DNA of 44,445 nt from contig CM119271.1 in assembly GCA_051294375.1 (NCBI GenBank), positions 8,525,969-8,570,413 on the forward strand, given 5' to 3'. The notes beneath the pieces are model-generated. The model searched no databases and had not been told where the DNA came from. It saw only the letters and a list, made by a program, of their open reading frames with translations. The stretch is from Paraspadella gotoi. Lineage: Eukaryota; Animalia; Chaetognatha. The first letter of the stretch is position 1; each line of letters starts with the position of its first letter. Below, one piece after another: positions 8,500 through 44,140 of the stretch. The position numbers were made by a program, and so were the translations under genes.

Positions 8500-9257
8500 G
8501 CGTTTGCGACGATGTCAGGCCCGGGGTTGTCGTCAAGGTTCGTCGCCTGTTCCGGAGAGAAATGAGAAGATATTGAGGGGTTGAGTCCAAAAAGAAAGGG
8601 GCGGGCGGAGAGGGGGGGGGAAAGACGATTCTCGTAACTCGACCCTCGTTTCTGAAGACTCGTTGTTGTTTCGCCGGTGAGTTTTATTTTTTTTATTTTT
8701 TCATGAGACCAAAAGGAGTAATAGTATTTATATTTAATGATATAAGGACAACTTGACTATAATTTTCGTCCGTATTTCCGTACGGTTTCGTTTTAGATAA
8801 CCCGGATACTTCTTCGATGTGAATTTCGATAAAAATCAATTTAAATCTGTTTAAACTAGTAAGATAACTTCGTCACTTAACAAAGCTTTCTCTTTCTTTT
8901 TACTCATTCTCGAGCGACAGGAGCCGTATATAATTGAATAATATATTATATATAATTGAATAATATATTATATATAATTGAATATTTCCCCGTCTTCAAC
9001 GAGAGTTTACTTTAGGTCCGTATCTAGTACTTTTAGCAATAGGCTAAGATAGGTAAATCAACGAAAGAAAAAAAGGAAATAGAAAACCGGATAATTTTAA
9101 CGAAAGGTAAAAGAAGAAAAAAAACTAGAAATACCGAGAAGTGAAGCGACCTACCATTTAGGATTTTTCTCACGGACTTACCCGATCAATAAAAAGAAAA
9201 TCCCGATTGGTAAGTCGTTTCAGAATATCGAAAAAAGGATAACGACGACGACAAAAG

Positions 9258-12200
9258 ATGGGGGGATGCGAGGATCAAAAATGCAACAAGATTCTGGCTA
9301 TCGTCGCGTTTGCTTTGAGTCTTTTCGCCTTGGTCTTCCTCATTGCGCTCGCCTTGTGAGTTGAAGTTGAAGAGTTAAACACCCAATACCCGAAATATAA
9401 TCTTATGTCGCTGGTTCGAGAGTTGAATTTCCCCCGGCTGAAAATTATTTTAAGGGGTGTGGCGGTATATTCACACCGCCTCATGTCCACCGTCGTTCTG
9501 CCAAAACAATTGGCTCAGAGGGGGAACACACCCTCCCGGCCGTTGTGTTCCATCCACAACCCTAACGTCTTACTTCTGCGTTGGCAAAGCGAGACCGTCT
9601 TAGGGCAATCGTGCCAGTGGTTGCATGCGTCACTGAGGGTCGGAATCCCCCGAAGCCACCAGTGAGATCCCCCATCGCAATGGGCGTCACGGATTCACAG
9701 ATTCACAGATTCCTTGTTCTGAAGAGACAGTAATTATTATTATGTGTTAGTGACAGAAACCGTTCAATATAAGCAGTCCCTGAGCTTCGGATCAGGCTGT
9801 AACACCATGTTACAGGCGGTTTAAGCGCCCCGTCGCCTCTTTAACTGCCAGACGACCCACCCGCGGCTAGAACCCCGGACCTTTGGGTTGGGAGGACGAA
9901 TGGACTTGCCTCCCGGCAGCCAATGGCCGCTGAGAACGGTTGGTGGATTTTAGTCCACCATACATCCCCCCCCTCCCCGTAGGGAGAAATCTGTTGCTCT
10001 CTTCAGTGAATTGTTGTTGGTTTGGTGGAAAGTTCGTCACCAAGTTGAGGGCATGTCGCCTGATGTGTTGTGGGCGGAAAGTGCATCGCCAGGTTGAGGC
10101 ATGGTCGCCTGAGAGTGTTGTTGTTGCCTGTTGGTGTTCGGAAGTCGGGTGTCTACCACAATAAGAGACAGTAATTATTATTATGTTTAGTGACAGAACC
10201 GTTCAAATATAGCAGTCCCTGAGCTTCGGATCAGGCTGTAACACCATGTTACAGCGGGTTTAAGCGGCCCCGTCCCTCTTAACTGCCAGACGACCACCGG
10301 GCTAGAACCCGGACCTTTGGGTTGGGAGCGATGATTGCCTCCGGCACCAATGGCCGCTGATGAACGGTTGTGGATTTTAGTCCACCATAGTTCATCATAT
10401 CTTGTAAGAGTGATGGAGGCCTTAAACCACAAAGCCTGTCCAAAGGTTAGCTTATTTTTTTAGATGATGTACTATATTTTTATTGTACCAATTTCATTTA
10501 TATTCGTTATTGCAAAAGGAATACCAAACATTAGTAACCGTAAATGCTTTGTAATTCGTCTTTAAGTTAATATAATGTAAAACGAAAATAAAAGTAAATA
10601 AGCTTACTGCCCCTTCATTATGACAATAGGACATACATTGCTCCGTCCTTCCAACAATATTTAGCGTCAACGCAATAAAGAGCTCTAACTTATTCGAATA
10701 TTTAGTTAAGATTCATGTCGTAAACCTAATCGGCCTTATTTAGCCTTAGAAAAAGGGTCATTCATTCAACTTCAAAATTAGGCCAAAAGTGAGTACAAAT
10801 TCAGAAAGCTGAGCTCCTGGGATTTCTGAAAATGGTATTCACTTTAAACATTTGACTGCATTCTACCCTATTTTATATCGGTTTTAATTATAATATAAAA
10901 TAAAAGAAACCTATCTGAAGAGTTGCAGGTCAAACGAAAAGGCCAATCCATCTGATATTTTTTAATGAATTTTTTTATTACTGAATTAGAAAAATGTAAT
11001 AGAGAGACATTTTTAAATTTCAACTTGTATCCTTGAAAATGAAACGTTTTTAAACTTTAACCCTGAATTCTTTCTAACTGGAACGCGTTTAATCAAAAAT
11101 GTCTCTCTATTACATTTTTACAAATGTTTTTTAAGATTGCGCTAATCAAATTTTAATTCAATTATTATTGCAGTCGTTTAGGCTGCAACTCTTCAAATTC
11201 AGTGTAGATTCATTGTAGCTCGAATTTCTTTACCATCTATTTAACTGAAGATTTTGTTCATGACTGGAAAACCAACAGAGTAACAAGATTAATTGTTTTA
11301 ATTCTCCCCTTCTAAACTAACCATACCGGTTTTAACTTCTTACCTAGAATTTTTTAACAAACAGATTGAAAAACAAAATCTTTAAAAAATGTGCTTACCC
11401 ATTTAACTTAACAATTTTGTTATTAACCGATTTCAAAAAAAATATTTAAAACACAATGTTGACATATAAATAAAATCTTTTTTTTGGTGATTACTGGTGA
11501 TTACGATGTATTTCTCGATGTTTTAGCTCTAATACATCAATGATTACGTAATTGTTATGCTGAATGACCTTTCCTCTTAAACGCCCCATTTTAAAGATTA
11601 GATTAAATATTAGGGTAAGGGTATTTTAGGTTAAGGAGTAGGTTTAAGCGATTAAGGTTCGCAAATTAGGGTTGGGGATTAAAGACAAGGTTATAGCTAA
11701 CTTAACCTTAATCCCAAACCCTGATTTTTAATTTTTAACCTTGTCCCTTAGCTGCTAAGGACAAGGTTAAAAATTAAAAATCAGGGTTTGGGATTAAGGT
11801 TAAGAATTGGGTTCTAAGTTTAAAAATTTATTTATATTAAACGTTAAGGTTAAAATTTGGGATAAAGGAAACATAAATGGGGGGGCTCTGGAAAAGAGAA
11901 CCCACTAAGTCTGCATTTAAAAAAAAAAGCCAAACCCACCTCTGTCAGCGTGTACTGGTGTCCGGTTTTGGATCTAATCCTCGTTATCATCGCGTTCCCG
12001 TGCGGCCTGATCGCCTCATCATGGCCCTGGTCAAACCCGGATCTGAACGTTGCCATCTTCACTCTCGCCATCATCAGCATCTGTACCAGTGGCATCGCCA
12101 TCATTGTGATACTTCTCGGTTTCTTACGTGAGAACCAAAAAAAAAAAAAAAAAAATGAGTTGGGGGGGGAAGATTGAAAAGAAAATCTATGTCCTATCTG

Positions 12201-13002
12201 TTTTTTTATATTTTGTTCAGTGTTCAATACCCGAATTGGGGATACACGAACTATTACTACGGATAGGATGTCATCCCGATCGTTCAAAAGTCTCAGGGAA
12301 CTGGATAAACGAATTACAGATGGAGGGAGGTTGTGGAACTATTTCCAATGCTCTTTTAAAATAATATATATATTTAAGGCGGAACGGGTTGAAAAACTGA
12401 AGGGGTCCGCTATAGTATATTTGTCCCATAAGTATGTAAAATAATTATTTCATCTTTTATCTAAATTTTTTAGCTCAATGAGTCAATCTGAATCTGTTTT
12501 AAAATTTATATAAAAATTTTTTAAACTATTTTTTATGCCTTAGTTTGTTCATACAATTTAAGTAAATTTAAACAATAAAAAATGGACATCAATTCAGTAA
12601 TAAAAAGACCAAACAATTTTTTTGCAGAATATTTTTCTATTGTAAAAGTTTTAAATTCTGGCCGCCTTAATATATATATTCTAAAGATTTAAGTTTGCCA
12701 TGGAAATCAATTGAAATAAATTTCAAAACCATCATAGATTGGTTACACACAAGTACAAATTAAATTATCTCTAATTTTTAGGTTTGGCAATTAGAGTTTA
12801 GACATAAAATAGTCTATTTAATAAAATAGCTATCTCGCCTTTGATTAAAAAGCGGCGACTCTTTGAAAACTTTCAAGACAATCGAGTCTAGACAGTCTGG
12901 TTTATGGAATTCCAGAGCACCTGGCTTACATATCAAACGTGGTTTCTTCATGAAGTTTAAATTCTATTGTACTTGCATAATATCTGTCCAGCGGCGGCGT
13001 AG
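9258..13002 (+). CDS. Small uncharacterised membrane protein with three hydrophobic segments (about 95 aa), 3 exons
   Basis: Exon 1 9258-9355 (MGGCEDQKCNKILAIVAFALSLFALVFLIALA, donor TT|gtgagt). Exon 2 11949-12127 (acceptor tgtcag|C completes TTC; VYWCPVLDLILVIIAFPCGLIAFIMALVKPDLNVAIFTLAIISICTSGIAIIVILLGFL, read cleanly in the copy at 23092-23270; this copy has a compensating -1/+1 indel pair). Putative exon 3 12992-13002 (tccag|CG GCG GCG TAG). Splice phases match and codons are C/G-ending as in the IF gene. Exon 3 is the least certain part. Confidence 0.7.
9405..9712 (+). mobile_element. Probable 5'-truncated SINE (duplicate at about 20542-20848)
   Basis: GC-rich island in an AT-rich intron with B-box-like GGTTCGAG near its 5' end, several short hairpins (ggcggt...accgcc, gaggg...ccctc, ccca...tggg) and a tail of 8-nt repeats (cacggatt cacagatt cacagatt). 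Confidence 0.45.
9773..9848 (-). ncRNA. Twister ribozyme-like motif (copy in first duplicated block)
   Basis: Same P3, P4 loop UCCGAAGC, GA-CGGG and outer stem; indel noise in the P2 region. Confidence 0.65.
10212..10286 (-). ncRNA. Twister ribozyme-like motif (copy in first duplicated block)
   Basis: Same P3, P4 loop UCCGAAGC, GA-CGGG and outer stem; indel noise around UAA/P2. Confidence 0.65.
10914..11197. mobile_element. MITE-like element with nested inverted repeats (duplicate about 22037-22317)
   Basis: tgaagagttgcag / ctgcaactcttca outer pair and perfect 25-bp aaaaatgtaatagagagacattttt / aaaaatgtctctctattacattttt inner pair. Confidence 0.5.
11701..11804. repeat. Near-perfect palindrome (about 52-bp arms) within degenerate TTAGGG-like repeats (duplicate 22838-22942)
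   Basis: cttaaccttaatcccaaaccctgatttttaatttttaaccttgtcccttagc-t-gctaagggacaagg...ggattaaggttaag; flanks 11610-11860 are degenerate ttaggg/ttaagg. Confidence 0.85.
12378..12666. mobile_element. Non-autonomous DNA transposon with TTAA target duplication and GG termini (Kolobok-like); duplicate 23522-23809
   Basis: TTAA|GGCGG...CCGCC|TTAA with imperfect about 20-bp TIRs (GGCGGaacgggTTgAAAAACT versus GGCGGccagaaTTtAAAACT) and an AT-rich interior. Confidence 0.55.
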
Positions 13003-13248
13003 ACGTCGGAGTCGTTTGGACGGCATTGGGGCGGGGTCCATTAGGGGTCCCGACGGACCCGGTCCCGTGGTCAAGAGTTAATTCTGCTTCTAGGAGGAGT
13101 GGTGCGTCTTGCACAGAAGGCGATGCCGGATCCTCATTGACGTTGAAACTTGATACAATTAGTGAAGAGTATTTGTTATTTGTTTTGTTTCGATTTTTTG
13201 AATTTCCTCTCGTTTTCCCTCGATTTTTAACTTCGGGTCTTCGTCACG

Positions 13249-13324
<76 letters not shown>

Positions 13325-14270
13325 CAAACCGGACTCTCGGCGTCCGGTTCCGCTGGGATTCCATCGCGTTAAAAAGTCTTGGAAATGTGTTTCCATTAAT
13401 TCGAGTCGAATCGATTCCTCCCGACAATTTCGTGGCGTCGGCGGCAAAACGAGAGGAGATCGCGGCTTCGAGGAGTCGAAGATTGTGGTCTTTGGGGGGG
13501 GGGATTGTGGACTTGAAAGTTTGTGGTCTGTTGGAGGTTTTGTGGTTCTGGACTTCTGGCAATTTTTGGACATTGGACAGGTCAATGGAGAAAACGTTGT
13601 TCGCGGCTTTGGGGGAACATGATTTAGGTTAGGGTATTAATATATACCAAAATCTTGGTCAAATGTAGCTCCTGTTAATTGTAGACTACTCTGTCAACTG
13701 ACTGTCAGTGTCTCGTTAGGAAAAAGCGAAAAAAAAAAACATGACAAAGTCTGGATTCTCTCTCTGTTTTTTTTTAAACATGATTACAGAACAAAATGTT
13801 CAATGTTTAGGATACCAAAACGACTGTTATTTCAATTGATTGTTTAATATTAGTGCATTGAGCGACAAATTAATTTAAACGAGTGATACAATCTCGGTTA
13901 GCGGCGGCCGACGACGACGACGAACGAAAATGAAAGAAAAAAATGAAGCAACAACCTTCTGATTCGAGAAATGGTAATGGCGCGATTAGATACAATTCAA
14001 AAATTGTTTACGTTGGATAATATGTTGTCAATTTAAAAAAAAACAAAAGTCTCATTTGAAATACGACTTTGTGAAGCTCCCGTAAAAAAAAATCTTTGTC
14101 ACATGGGACATTTCTGAAAACGGAATTGTAAGACTCGGAACGTTTTGTTTGTTTGTTTTGTTTGTTTTTTTTTGGTCGATCACTTTGCGTGTTTTGAAAA
14201 GCGTTAACGTGTTACATTTAATTCGTACAATAAGCCCCGAGATAAAAATAAAAACAAACAATAAACTCTT

Positions 14271-14364
<94 letters not shown>

Positions 14365-14845
14365 ATATGGAAAAAAGAAATAAAATGAAAGAAATCCCAC
14401 TGGCCTCTTTCCCTTGATTGCATGCTGGTTAAAATCGCTTCACGGGCGATTTGTCTCTCACCTTTTGGTTATACTGAAAACATCATGCCGGTTTTCTTTT
14501 TTTTAAGAATTCGTTTCATTTCTAAGAATTGAAGGAAAATGAGATTTGGCTCGCTTTCGCGTGCAGAGAAATCAATTAAGGGCCGAAAATAAAGCGCACG
14601 AATTAGCCTAAAGAGCCGAGTACTATTACTATTTTTTTTTTCTTGGATGCAGCAAAGCAAAACCACTTAAATGCAATGCTTTTTTAGTATTGTTCTAGTC
14701 AAGTCTTTGACCTAGTAATTAGTAGCAAGAGCTCCATCCCGACCGCTCTCCTACCCGGTATAAACTCCGACCATTCCACTCCGACCACTTTTTTTCCACT
14801 CCGACCACTTTTTTTCCACTCCCGACCACTTTTTTTCCACCCCGA

Positions 14846-19009
<4,164 letters not shown>

Positions 19010-20392
19010 CTGGAAGGAGTTGTCGAAAAAGTGAGATTGATGGATTGATCGAAAATCAACGAAAAATTGAATATTAATATAATTTCAAAAAAGAGTTAAT
19101 AATGACTTGTTGGCAGCTGGAAAATATAAAATGGACAATCATTGAGGGTCGATGAGAGGTGGCCATAATTGCGTATAAATGGTTACTTCCTGAGGGTGTT
19201 AATGGACGCCCACAATTTTAAATGCAGCCAATTTCAAGCATTTTCTCACTATCACACTTAAGGGAGGGGTCTTTTCATACAATGAATCATTCTTTGAAAC
19301 ATTATACCACTTCATTGTTAGGGAAGCCAGGAACTCTGGGATGAATAAAAAAGACTGTGAGAGAGTCTTGCTTGAAAGCTTGCAGGGACATGCTATGTCA
19401 TTATCTTGTAAAAGTGTTGGAAGCCTTAAACCACCAAAGCCTGTCCAAAGTCAAGGGCAAGATAGCTTATTTATTGAATGAATGGATAATTGTTAATTGG
19501 TTGTACCAATTTCATATGATNNNNNNNNNNNNNNNNNNNNNNNNNGATGGAGGCCTTAAACCACCAAAGCCTGTCCAAAGTTAGCTTATTTTTTTAATGA
19601 ATGTACTATTATTTTTATTGTACCAATTTCATTTATATTCGTTATTGCAAAAGGAATACCAACATTAGTAACGTAAATGCCTTTGTAATTCGTCTTTAAG
19701 TTAATATAATTGGTAAAACGAAAATAAAAGTAAATAAGCTTACTAGCCCCTTCATTATGACAATGGACATACATTGCCTCCGTCCTTCCAACAATATTTA
19801 GCGTCAACGCAATAAAGAGCTCTACTTATTCAATATTTAGTTAAGATTCATCTCGTAATACCCTAATCGGCCTTATTTGCCTTAAGAAAAAGGGTCATTC
19901 AATTCAACTTCAAATTAGGCCAAAATGGAGTACAAATTCAGAAAGCTGAGCTCTTCTTCGATGTGAATTTCGATAAAAATCAATTTAATCTGTTTAAACT
20001 AGTAAGATAATCTTCGTCACTTAACAAAAGCTTTCTCTTTCTTTTTTACTCTTCTCGAAGCGACAGAGCCGTATATAATTGAATATATATTATATAATAT
20101 AATATATTATATATAATTGAATATTTCCCGTCTTCAACGAGAGTTTACTTTAGGTCCGTATCTAGTACTTTTAGCAATAGGCTAAGATAGGTAAATCAAC
20201 GAAAGAAAAAAAAGGAAATAGAAAAACCGGATAATTTAACGAAGGTAAAAGAAGAAAAAAAACTAGAAATACCGAGAAGTGAAGCGACCTACCATTTAGG
20301 ATTTTTCTCACGGACTTACCCGATCAATAAAAGAAAATCCCGATGGTAAGTCGTTTCAGAATATGAAAAAAGGATAACGACGACGACAAAAG

Positions 20393-23300
20393 ATGGGGAT
20401 GCGAGGATCAAAAATGCAACCAAGATTCTGGGCTATCGTCGCGTTTGGCTTTGAGTCTTTTCGCCTTGGTCTTCCTCATTGCGGCTCGCCTTGTGAGTTG
20501 AAGTTGAAGAGTTAAACACCCAATACCCGAAATATAATCTTATGTCGCTGGTTCGAGAGTTGAATTTCCCCCGGCTTGAAAATTATTTTAAGGGGTGTGG
20601 CGGTATATTCACACCGCCTCATGTCCACCGTCGTTCTGCCAAAACAATTGGCTCAGAGGGGGAACACACCCTCCGGCCGTTGTGTTCCATCCACAACCCT
20701 AACGTCCTTACTTCTGCGTTGGCAAAGCGGACCGTCTTAGGCAATCGTGCCAGTGGTTGCATGCGTCACTGAGGGTCGAGAATCCCCCGAAGCACCAGTG
20801 AGATCCCCATTCGCAATGGGCGTCACGGATTCACAGATTCACAGATTCCTTGTTCTGAAGAGACAGTAATTATTATTATGTGTTAGTGACAGAAACCGTT
20901 CAATATAAGCAGTCCCTGAGCTTCGGATCAGGCTGTAACACCATGTTACAGGCGGTGTTAAGCGCCCCGTCCCTCTTAACTGCCAGACGACCACCGGGCT
21001 AGAACCCCGGACCTTTGGGTTGGGAGGCGAATGACTTGCCTCCCGGCACCAATGGCCGCTGATGAACGGTTGGTGGATTTTAGTCCACCATACATCCCCC
21101 CCTCCCGTAGGGAGAAATCTGTTGCGTCTCTTCAGTGAATTGTTGTTGTTGGTGGAAAGTTCGTCACCAAGTTGAGGCATGTCGCCTGATGTGTTGTGGG
21201 CGGAAAGTGCATCGCCAGGTTGAGGCATGTCGCCTGAGAGTGTTGTTGTTGCTGTTGTGTTCGGAAGTCGGGCTACCACAATGAAGAGACAGTAATTATT
21301 ATTATGTGTTAGTGACAGAACCGTTCAAATATAGCAGTCCCTGAGCTTCGGATCAGGCTGTAACACCATGTTACAGGCGGGTTAAGCGCCCCGTCCCTCT
21401 TAACTGCCAGACGACCACCGGGCTAGAACCCCGGACCTTTGGGTTGGGAGGGCGAATGACTTGCCTCCGGCACCAATGGCCGCTGATGAACGGTTGTGGA
21501 TTTTAGTCCACCATAGTTCTCATATCTTGTAAGAGTGATGGAGGCCTTAAACCACAAAGCCTGTCCAAAGTTAGCTTATTTTTTTAATGAATGTACTATA
21601 TTTTTATTGTACCAATTTCATTTATATTCGTTATTGCAAAAGGAATACCAACATTAGTAACGTAAATGCCTTTGTAATTCGTCTTTAAGTTAATATAATG
21701 GTAAAAACGAAAATAAAAGTAAATAAGCTTACTAGCCCCTTCATTATGACAATGGACATACATTGCCTCCGTCCTTCCAACAATATTTAGCGTCAACGCA
21801 ATAAAGAGCTCTACTTATTCAATATTTAGTTAAGATTCATTCGTAATACCTAATCGGCCTTATTTGCCTTAAGAAAAAGGGTCATTCAATTCAACTTCAA
21901 ATTAGGCCAAAAGTGAGTACAAATTCAGAAAGCTGAGCTCCTGGCGATTCTGAAAATGTATTCACTTTAAACATTTTGATGCATTCTACCCTATTTTATA
22001 TCGGTTTTAATTATAATATAAAATAAAAGAAACCTATCTGAAGAGTTGCAGGTCAAACGAAAAAGGCCAATCCATCTGATATTTTTTATGAATTTTTTAT
22101 TACTGAATTAGAAAAATGTAATAGAGAGACATTTTTAAATTTCAACTTGTATCCTTGAAAATGAAACGTTTTTAAACTTTAACCCTGAATTCTTTCTAAC
22201 TGGAACGCGTTTATCAAAATGTCTCTCTATTACATTTTTACAAATGTTTTTTAAGATTGCCTAATCAAATTTTTAATTCAATATTATTGCAGTCGTTTAG
22301 GCTGCAACTCTTCAAATTCAGTGTAGATTCATTGTAGCTCGAATTTCTTTACCATCTATTTAACTGAAGATTTTGTTCATGACTGGAAAACCAACAGAGT
22401 AACAAGATTAATTGTTTAATTCTCCCCTTCTAAACTAACCATACCGGTTTTAACTTCTTACCTAGAATTTTTTAACAAACAGATTGAAAAACAAATCTTT
22501 AAAAAATGTGCTTACCCATTTAACTTAACAATTTTGTTATTAACCGATTTCAAAAAAAATATTTAAAACACAATGTTGACATATAAATAAAATCTTTTTT
22601 TTGGTGATTACTGGTGATTACGATGTATTTCTCGATGTTTTAGCTCTAATACATCAATGNNNNNNNNNNNNNNNNNNNNNNNNNATTACGTATTGTTATG
22701 CTGAATGACCTTTCCTCTTAAACGCCCCATTTTAAAGATTAGATTAAATATTAGGGTAAGGGTATTTAGGTTAAGGAGTAGGTTAGCGATTAAGGTTCGC
22801 AATTAGGGTTGGGGATTAAAGACAAGGTTATAGCTAACTTAACCTTAATCCCAAACCCTGATTTTTAATTTTTAACCTTGTCCCTTAGCTGCTAAGGGAC
22901 AAGGTTAAAAATTAAAAATCAGGGTTTGGGATTAAGGTTAAGAATTGGGTTCTAAGTTTAAAAATTTATTTATATTAAACGTTAAGGTTAAAATTTGGGG
23001 ATAAAGGAAACATAAATGGGGGGGGGGCTCTGGGAAAAGAGAACCCACTAATCTAGCATTTAAAAAAAAAAGCCAAACCCACCTCTGTCAGCGTGTACTG
23101 GTGTCCGGTTTTGGATCTAATCCTCGTTATCATCGCGTTCCCGTGCGGCCTGATCGCCTTCATCATGGCCCTGGTCAAACCGGATCTGAACGTTGCCATC
23201 TTCACTCTCGCCATCATCAGCATCTGTACCAGTGGCATCGCCATCATTGTGATACTTCTCGGTTTCTTACGTGAGAACCAAAAAAAAAAAAAAAAAATGA

Positions 23301-24145
23301 GTTGGGGGGGGGAAGATTGAAAAGAAAATCTATGTCCTATCTGTTTTTTTATATTTTGTTCAGTGTTCAATACCCCGAATTGGGGATACACGAACTATTA
23401 CTACGGATAGGATGTCATCCCGATCGTTCAAAAAGTCTCAGGGAACTGGATAAACGAATTACAGATGGAGGGAGGTTGTGGGAACTATTTCCAATGCTCT
23501 TTTAAAATATATATATATTAAGGCGGAACGGGTTGAAAACTGGAAGGGGTCCGCTATATATATTTGTCCCATAAGTATGTAAAATAATTATTTCATCTTT
23601 TATCTAAATTTTTTAGCTCAATGAGTCAATCTGAATCTGTTTTTAAAATTTATATAAAATTTTTTAAACTATTTTTTATGCCTTAGTTTGTTCATACAAT
23701 TAAGTAAATTTAAACAATAAAAATGGACATCAATTCAGTAATAAAAAGACCAAACAATTTTTTTGCAGAATATTTTTCTATTGTAAAAAGTTTTAAATTC
23801 TGGCCCGCCTTAATATATATATTTCTAAAGATTTTAAGTTTGCCATGGAAATCAATTGAAATAAATTCAAAACCATCATAGATTGGTTACAACAAAGTAC
23901 AAATTAAATATCTCTAATTTTTAGGTTTGGCAATTAGAGTTTAGACATAAAATAGTCTATTTAATAAAATAGGCTATCTCGCCTTTGATTAAAAAGCGGG
24001 ACTCTTTGAAAACTTTCAAGACAATCGAGTCTAGACAGTCTGGTTTATGGAATTCCAGAGCACCTGGCTTACATATCAAACGTGGTTTCTTCATGAAGTT
24101 TAAATTCTATTGTACTTGCATAATATCTGTCCAGCGGCGGCGTAG
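20393..24145 (+). CDS. Duplicate copy of the small membrane-protein gene
   Basis: Exon 1 20393-20492 has several homopolymer indels, exon 2 23092-23270 is intact, exon 3 is 24135-24145. Part of the 10.7-kb duplicated block. Confidence 0.6.
20909..20983 (-). ncRNA. Twister ribozyme-like motif (second tandem copy)
   Basis: Same elements as 21334-21407; P2 strand reads CACC; predicted cut between 20960 and 20959. Confidence 0.7.
20987..21059 (-). other. tRNA-like (Pol III promoter-like) module directly 5' of the twister motif; also at 21411-21483, 9852-9930 and 10290-10357
   Basis: 73 nt closed by acceptor-like stem GCGGCCA/UGGUCGU, with A-box-like TGGTGCCGGGAGG and T-arm CCGGG-GUUCUAG-CCCGG containing B-box-like GGTTCTAGCCC. 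The anticodon arm does not pair well, so this is not called as a functional tRNA. Confidence 0.5.
21334..21407 (-). ncRNA. Twister ribozyme-like motif, circularly permuted (P5-type)
   Basis: Minus strand reads GCAGUU AA GAGG GA CGGG GCGC U|UAA CCC GC CUGUAAC AUGGU GUUACAG CCUGA UCCGAAGC UCAGG GACUGC (the bar only separates P1 from UAA). Outer stem GCAGUU/GACUGC; P3 CUGUAAC/GUUACAG; P4 CCUGA/UCAGG closing loop UCCGAAGC (twister consensus UCNNAAGC); pseudoknot UCCG/CGGG preceded by the conserved GA; GC/GC second pseudoknot; UAA at the cleavage site (predicted cut between 21384 and 21383). P1 and P2 are short or imperfect. Confidence 0.72.
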
Positions 24146-24389
24146 ACGTCGGAGTCGTTTGACGGCATTGGGGGCGGGGGTCCATTAGGGGTCCCGACGG
24201 ACCCGGTCCCGTGGTCAAGAGTTAATTCTGCTTCTAGGAGGAGTGGTGCGTCTTGCACAGAAGGCGATGCCGGATCCTCATTGACGTTGAAACTTGATAC
24301 AATTAGTGAAGAGTATTTGTTATTTGTTTTGTTTCGATTTTTGAATTTCCTCTCGTTTTCCCTCGATTTTTAACTTCGGGTCTTCGTCA

Positions 24390-24448
<59 letters not shown>

Positions 24449-25392
24449 CAAACCGGACTCTCGCGTCCGGTTCCGCGCGGATTCCATCGCGTTAAAAGTC
24501 TTGGAAATGTGTTTCCATTAATTCGAGTCGAATCGATTCCTCCCGACAATTTCGTGGCGTCGGCGGCAAAACGAGAGGAGATCCCGCGGCTTCGAGGAGG
24601 TCGAAGATTGTGGTCTTTGGGGGGGGGGATTGTGGACTTGAAAGTTTGTGGTCTGTTGGAGGGTTTGTGGTTCTGGACTTCTGGCAATTTTGGACATTGG
24701 ACAGGTCAATGGAGAAAACGTTGTTCGCGCTTTGGGGGAACATGATTTAGGTTAGGGTATTAATATATACCAAAATCTTGGTCAAATGTTAGCTCCTGTT
24801 AATTGTAGACTACTCTGTCACTGACTGTCAGTGTCTCGTTAGGAAAAGCGAAAAAAAAAAAAACATGACAAAGTCTGGATTCTCTCTCTGTTTTTTTTTA
24901 AACATGATTACAGAACAAAATGTTCAATGTTTAGGATACAAAACGACTGTTATTTCAATTGATTGTTTAATATTAGTGCATTGAGCGACAAATTAATTTA
25001 AACGAGTGATACAATCTCGGTTAGCGGCGGCGACGACGACGACGACGAAAATGAAAGAAAAAAATGAAGCAACAACCTTCTGATTCGAGAAATGGTAATG
25101 GCGCGATTAGATACAATTCAAAAATTGTTTACGTTGGATAATATGTTGTCAATTTAAAAAAAAACAAAAGTCTCATTTGAAATACGACTTTGTGAAGCTC
25201 CCGTAAAAAAAAAAATCTTTGTCACATGGGACATTTCTGAAAACGGAATTGTAAGACTCGGAACGTTTTGTTTTGTTTTGTTTTGTTTTTTTTTTGGTCG
25301 ATCACTTTGCGTGTTTTGAAAGCGTGTAACGTGTTACATTTAATTCGTACAATAAAGCCCCGAGATAAAAATAAAACAAACAATAAACTCTT

Positions 25393-25513
<121 letters not shown>

Positions 25514-25924
25514 ATATGGAAAAAAGAAATAAAATGATAAGAAATCCCACTGGCCTCTTTCCCCTTGATTGCATGCTGGTTAAAATCGCTTCACGGGCGA
25601 TTTGTTCTCTCACCTTTTGGTTATACTGAAAACATCATGCGGTTTTCTTTTTTTTAAGAATTCGTTTCATTTCTAAGAAATTGAAGGAAAATGAGATTTG
25701 GCTCGCTTTCGCGTGCAGAGAAATCAATTAAGGGGCCGAAAATAAAGCGCACGAAATTAGCCTAAAGAGCCGAGTACTATTACTATTTTTTTTTTCTTGG
25801 ATGCAGCAAGCAAAACCACTTAAATGCAATGCTTTTTTAGTATTGTTCTAGTCAAGTCTTTGACCTAGTAATTAGTAAGCAAGAGCTCCATCCCGACCGC
25901 TCTCTACCCGGTATAAACTCCGAC

Positions 25925-25997
25925 CATTCCACTCCGACCACTTTTTTTCCACTCCGACCACTTTTTTTCCACTCCGACCACTTTTTTTCCACCCCGA

Positions 25998-26002
<5 letters not shown>
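25925..26002. repeat. About 21-bp minisatellite at the start of the IF 3' UTR (duplicate 14773-14850)
   Basis: (ttccactccgaccacttttt)x about 3.5, overlapping the stop codon. Confidence 0.85.
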
Positions 26003-32200
<6,198 letters not shown>

Positions 32201-43929: not shown

Positions 43930-44140
43930 GAATCCCTACCTCTAAAACCTAACCCGTCAGCCTAATCCCTAACCCTATTCCGAAACATTAATCACTAATC
44001 TTAATCCCTAATCTTAATCCCTAACCATATTCCTAAATATTAATCCCTAATATTAATTCCTAATCTTAATCCCTAATCTTAATCTCTAACCATATTCCTT
44101 AACCATCACGCTTAACCTAGAATCTTTAATCTTAAACCTT
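43930..44140. repeat. Degenerate interstitial telomere-like (CCCTAA/TCTTAA)n tract
   Basis: Repeated ccctaa/tcttaa/cctaac hexamers. Confidence 0.7.

Follow-up and report, generated by a model that had tools for sequence, protein, structure and literature searches.

Introduction

What kind of element disperses a short, partly repeated stretch of chaetognath DNA, and does the RNA made from it cut itself? These questions are raised by a locus of Paraspadella gotoi (assembly GCA_051294375.1, contig CM119271.1, positions 8,525,969 to 8,570,413), and the whole 44,445-nucleotide stretch that was analyzed, here called the window, is noisy animal DNA with microsatellites and 25-N gaps. An earlier note on this DNA had proposed that positions 20857 to 21515 hold a head-to-tail array of about 424-nt units, each carrying a permuted twister ribozyme, and had placed the array among the retrozymes that lack long terminal repeats (LTRs). 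Retrozymes are still divided into a plant group with LTRs and type III hammerheads and an animal group without LTRs and with type I hammerheads, the latter being linked to Penelope-like elements (2026 preprint 10.64898/2026.07.22.740005).

The present analysis assigns the sequence to the TRIMs (terminal-repeat retrotransposons of miniature size). Moreover, each of its two LTRs was found to contain a twister-like fold that probably cleaves itself, and a scheme is proposed in which the 424-nt RNA between the two predicted cut sites would circularize and be copied back into a complete element.

Materials and Methods

All coordinates are those of the window, and the element is read on the minus strand throughout. 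The public runs X1, X3, X4, X9, and X11 were examined as contigs; variant figures derived from these contigs are depth-weighted, unphased, and poorly sensitive close to ends, and tandem arrays of the element elsewhere in the genome lie beyond what the contigs are able to exclude. A descriptor of type-P5 twisters was composed with the motif already known, and the roles assigned to twister residues derive partly from PMC5408937 and PMC11662667 and partly from general knowledge. Folding energies for monomer, dimer, and cofold leave out pseudoknots. The comparison with the Helenus families of PMC10886601 was made by eye and covered 7 of the 11 parts of the supplement; the hammerheads of wasp Helenus elements were likewise identified by eye, with no program run on them. 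Statements attributed to a cited paper refer to the parts of that paper that were covered.

Results and Discussion

The element spans 660 bp (20856–21515, minus strand) and has the order LTR, internal region, LTR. Self-comparison delimited a 5′ LTR of 234 bp with TA...CA ends (21282–21515) and a 3′ LTR that measures 237 bp as assembled (20856–21092), which are identical in 232 of 239 aligned columns, the other seven being gaps, with no substitution between them. Because the two LTRs are identical in substitutions, the insertion is presumably recent. This block of approximately 235 nt is the only repeated sequence, and the intervening 189 nt (internal region, 21093–21281) occur once per element, which does away with the head-to-tail array of 424-nt units. 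Coding capacity was looked for in the internal region and none was found; the region contains a 48-bp direct duplication (21144–21246). It starts with a primer-binding site (PBS) that adjoins the 5′ LTR (21267–21281), and a G-rich polypurine tract (PPT, 21095–21106) lies two bases ahead of the 3′ LTR. Judged from the read-majority letters, the family has a tRNA-Trp-type PBS; the window copy reads differently, the contig depth majority in X1, X3, and X9 departing from the assembly at 21275, 21276, and 21278. With the majority letters the site matches the tRNA-Trp PBS of Gypsy-32_NVi and Helenus-2_SyJa in 12 of 13 positions (Fig S2, PMC10886601). The tetranucleotide GAAC is present on both sides as a 4-bp target-site duplication (TSD; 5′ copy at 21516–21519, 3′ copy at 20852–20855) in the single insertion that was examined, and the window contains no empty target site. 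A small hairpin is found at the LTR start (21512–21496).

Loose contig ends at 21092 and 21282 confirm these boundaries. At the LTR 5′ end (21092), 125, 51, and 25 contigs run out into unlike flanks in X1, X3, and X9, respectively, and at the LTR 3′ end (21282) the same holds for 132 contigs of X1 and 34 of X9, with agreement values of 0.42–0.45. The summed contig depth of the element is thousands of times the depth of its flanks, a ratio that does not represent a copy number. Organism B provided three contigs, two of which cover the LTR end and the primer site, and the biofilm run X11 yielded one element contig with a depth of 2, which is uninformative on habitat. An assembly stutter of single-copy sequence, which the earlier note had named as a possible source of its repeat, is ruled out by the contigs. 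A contig joint that skips 424 nt was considered as a trace of an RNA circle and rejected because it is present in DNA runs; it represents two LTRs or a solo LTR. The element is a dispersed non-coding miniature LTR retroelement with TRIM anatomy, an assignment that we regard as practically certain.

A second assembled copy of the insertion (9720–10389, minus strand) had been described in the earlier note as a noisier copy. It has the same flanks and the same TSD, and it lies within a 10.7-kb direct duplication of which 8809–19520 and 19953–30690 are the two members. These differ by 38 substitutions and 308 gap columns, and a 25-N gap marks where the duplication ends. Because of these shared flanks and its position inside the duplication, the copy is not independent and is probably the same insertion, duplicated by the assembly.

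The twister-like fold of the 5′ LTR (21333–21408, minus strand) has the block order of type P5 and lies directly 3′ of a tRNA-like stretch. It comprises a 7-bp P5 (21408–21402 with 21339–21333), the general-base G21395 with A21394 beside it, a T1 pseudoknot of three Watson-Crick pairs and a possible G·U pair (21393–21391 with 21349–21351), a T2 pseudoknot of 2 bp (21378–21377 with 21345–21346), a P3 of 7 to 8 bp (21376–21358), and a P4 of 5 bp (21357–21340). Cleavage is predicted between U21384 and A21383, within U21384-A21383-A21382, and next to this site a self-complementary 6-mer (21385–21390) replaces stem P1 and is predicted to form a helix shared between two ribozyme copies. The fold recurs in the 3′ LTR (20908–20984; predicted cut U20960|A20959), with one extra P2 base as assembled. 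The U-A cut site, the second A, the catalytic G, the A·A pair, and complementary T1 (3 bp) and T2 (2 bp) strands are all present. As the earlier note had recognized, the window holds four such motifs on the minus strand, with GA and CGGG at 21395, 20971, 10274, and 9834 and the UCCGAAGC loop at 21352, 20927, 10230, and 9791; their spacing is 424–425 nt in the 20856–21515 copy and 439–440 nt in the 9720–10389 copy. The note's account of how UAA, GC, P3 (7–8 bp), P4 (5 bp), the partner of the loop, and the outer stem are arranged and paired holds; it left out that P1 is absent, P2 short, and P4 closed by an A-U pair, and that a tRNA-like stretch adjoins the fold. A long-range stem (21495–21487 with 21326–21318) encloses the tRNA-like stretch together with the twister-like fold.

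The P5-twister descriptor had one match in the window (21395–21345), and none in 300 locally shuffled windows or in 5000 LTR shuffles; when relaxed, it matched 7 times in 300 windows. Only one of the four assembled motif copies passes the descriptor; the other three fail on minor sequence differences, most of them indels, that lie in the linker or P2. The contig sequences agree with the passing copy. Within the fold core, 5185 contigs of X1 vary at a level of at least 3% at 21367, 21368, 21369, and 21388 only, and no indel reaches this level; in the smaller contig sets of X4 (795) and X9 (311), two places each vary to this extent. Three of the four varying positions fall in the 5-nt P3 loop (hypergeometric p ~0.001), and the fourth, 21388, changes the linker while keeping its pairing as a wobble. 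The core has four CpG sites, and the one in the linker alone varies. Moreover, the common variants at 21408 and 21411 convert G·U pairs to Watson-Crick pairs.

Relatives of the fold were sought by pattern. Among 240 viral stretches fetched by twister-like patterns, nine pass a pairing filter, and all nine reach the Rfam Twister-P5 gathering threshold. The T1 pair of the element is swapped, GACGG pairing with UCCGAAGC, and this arrangement is natural, since three of the nine Rfam-positive phage motifs carry it (L148, L210, and L232 (147–205)). The exact conserved letters were found in four viral stretches, none of which has the stems, and the exact 20-nt core had no metagenome match. Among 119 examined metagenome stretches that share the conserved letters (approximately 290 estimated), one had comparable P4 and P2 pairing; this stretch and a second look-alike were rejected as chance, being bacterial-looking sequence with no Rfam match and no similarity to the element.

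The tRNA-like stretch measures 73 nt (21411–21483 in the 5′ LTR, with a second copy at 20987–21059, minus strand) and is a predicted promoter for RNA polymerase III (Pol III), with a 7-bp acceptor-like stem, a T-arm-like hairpin, and a box B at 21430–21420. ARAGORN and Rfam detected no tRNA in this LTR stretch. By eye, it has a 9-nt anticodon-loop-like word in common with fish Helenus LTRs, at a near-equal distance from box B, and the TA at the LTR start is also found in published Helenus LTRs (PMC10886601 supplement). A run of four T is absent from the minus strand of the element.

These signals resemble those of the Helenus TRIMs (TRIMp3; Kojima 2024, PMC10886601), which are non-coding, range from 311 to 1263 bp, and have two LTRs with a tRNA-like stretch and a GGTTC box B, a PBS, a PPT, and, in animal families, a 4-bp TSD; Helenus-2_SyJa and Gypsy-32_NVi share the tRNA-Trp PBS as well. 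The chaetognath element differs from them in its twister-like fold after the tRNA-like stretch and in its degenerate box A. Judged by its sequence signals, it is a Helenus-type TRIM. No family resembling it was recognized by eye in the seven supplement parts, and its loop motif had no occurrence in the supplement, where line wraps can hide matches.

The replacement of P1 by a self-complementary 6-mer suggests that the two LTR copies act together as a double ribozyme. Self-complementarity of the 6-nt linker has a chance of 0.02–0.05, and its duplex has a predicted energy of −8.3 kcal/mol. A strand-swapped dimer was computed at −54.3 kcal/mol versus −42.6 kcal/mol for two active-compatible monomers, which makes the dimer 11.7 kcal/mol more stable. 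Comparable behavior has been described for dimeric hammerheads with a palindromic helix III, which are thought to cut in multimers and not in monomeric circles (PMC4209133).

In the proposed scheme, Pol III transcription would begin at the tRNA-like stretch within the 5′ LTR and continue through both LTRs, with no four-T run to stop it. The two palindromic linkers would pair as one 6-bp helix, serving as P1 of two strand-swapped twister cores. Cleavage at U|A would require both LTRs, so that solo-LTR transcripts and the monomer would stay uncut. The predicted cut sites 21384|21383 and 20960|20959 lie 424 nt apart, and the unit-length RNA predicted between them (20960–21383, minus strand) would consist of one permuted LTR and the internal region, without terminal redundancy. 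A ligase of the RtcB type, whose ability to close metazoan retrozymes has been shown in vitro (PMC7229834), might then close this product, after which tRNA-Trp would prime at the PBS and a Gypsy-type reverse transcriptase would circle the template, rebuilding the LTR-internal-LTR order. Such tRNA-primed copying of a unit-length circle by a Gypsy enzyme has been proposed for plant LTR retrozymes (PMC7761336, PMC4918200). Finally, an integrase would produce the 4-bp TSD. An inverted repeat joins the LTR 3′ end with the internal region (21292–21282 with 21135–21126); in the predicted circle this repeat is paired, and the primer site would lie between its arms.

Several results weigh against the proposed scheme. 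The earlier note had named the lack of a covariance-model hit and the lack of covariation among genomic copies as findings that would speak against its reading. The Rfam twister models gave no match at four scales, even at E 10 on a 91-nt stretch; the miss is explained, though not cancelled, by the 8-bp P1 and 4-bp P2 of the P5 model. Two-sided covariation of the stems was not seen in the unphased contigs, which showed one-sided pair-keeping and loop changes only, and the invariance of the core may merely reflect the age of a young family. P2 has 2 bp (3 with a bulge) versus 4 in the consensus, in a sequence confirmed by reads, and P4 is closed by A-U and not by the near-invariant G-C pair, which has been called "essentially invariant" in a review that also suggested that a changed P2 length may disturb the active site (PMC5408937). 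All nine recovered phage P5 motifs keep a 4-nt P2 and a G at the P4-closing place, a pattern with a 3-nt P2 left none of 120 viral stretches past the pairing filter, and relatives of the fold were found in neither the viral nor the metagenome scans. Furthermore, in the minimum-energy fold the T1 strand is base-paired to the P2/T2 strand, the pair probability of P2 is 0, and the fold z-score is only −2.0 (43 of 1000 shuffles). Cleavage by P1-less twisters has been called inefficient (PMC8501958). Box A of the tRNA-like stretch is degenerate and off consensus, two misfolded monomers (−58.0 kcal/mol) and the cofold minimum (−69.2 kcal/mol) both beat the swapped dimer, and the predicted circle is 52% paired (z −2.5, 60 shuffles) versus more than 70% for retrozymes.

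On the other side, P1-less twisters have been found to cut at near wild-type rate (PMC5408937), and in a high-throughput assay imperfections in P1, P2, and most of P4 were tolerated while changes in the pseudoknots and catalytic residues were not (PMC11662667). In our classification the fold works like a twister without being filed as a canonical member, since its pseudoknot and catalytic parts are intact while P1, P2, and P4 depart from the consensus. It shares with type-P5 twisters (Rfam RF02684; PMC5408937) the block order, the U-A-A cut site, the catalytic G, the A·A pair, T1 and T2, and the L4 letters, and with the phage twisters L148, L210, and L232 the swapped T1 pair, and it differs from type P5 in lacking the P1 hairpin, for which the 6-nt linker stands, in its 2–3-bp P2, in the A-U pair that closes P4, and in the missing model match. 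The modeled fold is probably active as a self-cleaving twister. For the scheme as a whole, a Helenus-type TRIM with a likely self-cleaving twister fold in each LTR, probably acting as a double ribozyme, a 424-nt RNA predicted to circularize, and copying by a Gypsy enzyme, the balance tips slightly in favor. The RNA circle as an intermediate, argued by analogy, comes close to an even call without reaching it, and the requirement of a dimer for cleavage, which derives from modeling, is put forward tentatively and leans to the doubtful side.

The best surviving alternative is that the element is an ordinary Helenus-type TRIM, the LTRs of which hold plain hairpins or a dead twister relic, and the transcript of which is a linear, terminally redundant Pol III RNA, as has been inferred for other TRIMp3. 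The negative Rfam result and the three departures from the twister consensus agree with this explanation, as does the equally good local partner that the CGGG block has in the minimum-energy fold; a ribozyme is not apparent by eye in most published Helenus LTRs, and a young family suffices to explain the invariant core. A relic or a chance hairpin would nevertheless have to account for the full set of twister letters with both pseudoknots in the correct order, which arose in none of the 300 shuffled windows, for the restriction of CpG variation to the linker, and for a second ribozyme class that was seen by eye at this place in the LTRs of wasp Helenus elements. We consider this alternative unlikely, albeit a serious one.

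A second explanation accepts an active twister and does without the circle. A monomeric ribozyme would merely form the 3′ end of the terminator-less Pol III transcript in the 3′ LTR, the 5′ copy would often stay uncut, and the resulting linear RNA, with approximately 100 nt of terminal redundancy, would undergo normal strand transfer. [quoted passage not shown] Against it, the palindromic linker would be accidental, at the chance given above, and nothing except the folding context could spare the 5′ copy, because both LTR copies are identical; this explanation is judged quite improbable.

Finally, a non-LTR retrozyme of head-to-tail 424-nt units, moved by Penelope-like or LINE machinery, would also yield unit-length RNA from two cut sites 424 nt apart, and TRIMs can form tandem arrays (LTR-11_DR, PMC10886601), but only 235 of the 424 nt are repeated, the PBS, PPT, TA...CA ends, and 4-bp TSD are excluded for that class (PMC7229834), and contigs run from both ends of the LTR into many flanks that are unlike one another, which leaves it hardly any likelihood. 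What stands of the earlier proposal is a non-autonomous retroelement with a P5-permuted twister-like fold that would free a 424-nt RNA; its placement among the non-LTR retrozymes is replaced by an element with two LTRs, a PBS, a PPT, and a 4-bp TSD.

Read as a Helenus-type TRIM with a self-cleaving fold in each LTR, the element would, by analogy, likely represent in an animal what the LTR retrozymes are in plants (Cervera et al. 2016, PMC4918200), provided that the fold cuts itself. Both have a ribozyme motif in each LTR, a non-coding middle, a PBS, a PPT, a 4-bp TSD, solo LTRs, and Gypsy-type signals, and both follow a route via a unit-length circle, which for the present element is a prediction. 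Unlike the plant elements, it resides in an animal, carries a twister-like fold in place of a type III hammerhead (no hammerhead model matched) and a tRNA-Trp in place of a tRNA-Met primer site, and has a unit of 424 nt versus 600–1000 nt, a tRNA-like internal promoter, and less self-pairing. With the metazoan non-LTR retrozymes and the dimeric hammerheads of Penelope-like elements (PMC7229834, PMC4209133) it shares an animal host, a short unit delimited by ribozymes, and a palindrome that replaces a weak helix and would form in the dimer, whereas the former consist of multimers repeated in tandem, have type I hammerheads and larger TSDs, and lack LTRs, PBS, and PPT (PMC7229834). The T-variant twisters of Perere-3 of Schistosoma mansoni (PMC8501958) likewise belong to an animal retroelement and have a P1 that is weak or lacking, but they occur once per element, at the 5′ end of a non-LTR element that is coding, and the target site supplies part of their P1, whereas the present fold is permuted and is contained in each LTR of an element without coding capacity.

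The wasp elements mentioned above offer a second comparison. By eye, a type III hammerhead can be made out just 3′ of box B in the LTRs of Helenus-2_SyJa and Helenus-2_SyUm, both from gall wasps (PMC10886601 supplement). It is complete, with three stems, the two core motifs, the triplet of the cut site, and loops 1 and 2 that are complementary to each other. Among the families shown by a search of the supplement, these two alone have a tRNA-Trp primer site, and no ribozyme was recognized by eye in other animal Helenus LTRs of the covered parts. The covered parts of PMC10886601 do not mention this hammerhead, and they name a ribozyme for no family. From their sequence, the gall-wasp Helenus-2 elements would be insect LTR retrozymes.

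The literature search, which did not extend to subscription papers, brought up neither an LTR retrozyme from an animal, nor a twister located in an LTR or TRIM, nor a dimeric twister occurring in nature; the motif may be among the twisters tested in PMC11662667. The element joins two known kinds, the Helenus TRIM and the LTR retrozyme, in a new combination with a non-canonical predicted twister. The most far-reaching interpretation, which we consider somewhat unlikely in its entirety, is that of an animal LTR retrozyme with a tRNA-derived Pol III promoter and a natural double twister sharing a palindromic P1, in which only two-LTR transcripts become circles, and which together with the hammerhead-bearing wasp Helenus elements would form a group of tRNA-Trp-primed TRIMs with an interchangeable ribozyme class. 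If true, a twister in the LTR element of an animal would go against the host rule as well as the class rule for retrozymes, eukaryotic twisters would gain a new role, and a way would be suggested in which a terminator-less Pol III TRIM obtains defined ends and rebuilds its two LTRs. Such twister motifs may be undercounted in animal genomes, because the Rfam models do not detect a permuted, P1-less twister that cuts only in pairs.

Surroundings of the Element

Other high-copy repeats, characterized by high contig depth and loose ends, lie beside the element at 20552–20750, 21523–21621, and 21827–21950; diverged copies of 21523–21621 are found at 2008–2126, 19402–19515, and 30571–30685. Two near-perfect palindromes, of 105 bp at 22838–22942 (copy at 11701–11804) and of 154 bp at 31078–31231, match microRNA models only far below gathering thresholds and are possibly small inverted-repeat elements. 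A perfect 5-bp satellite with 33 copies and a degenerate 13-bp array are located at 861–1026 and 43963–44104, respectively. A hydrophobic reading frame at 11866–12177 on the plus strand is possibly a membrane-protein exon; its DUF1218 match is weak and stays below the cut-off. The minus strand carries intermediate-filament exons at approximately 27600–31020, which are partly duplicated at approximately 16500–17800 and show frameshifts caused by assembly noise. A filament exon scores above the Pfam Filament cut-off and has invertebrate-type relatives at 63–77%, among which the sole relative with a named taxon is a chaetognath protein (73%).

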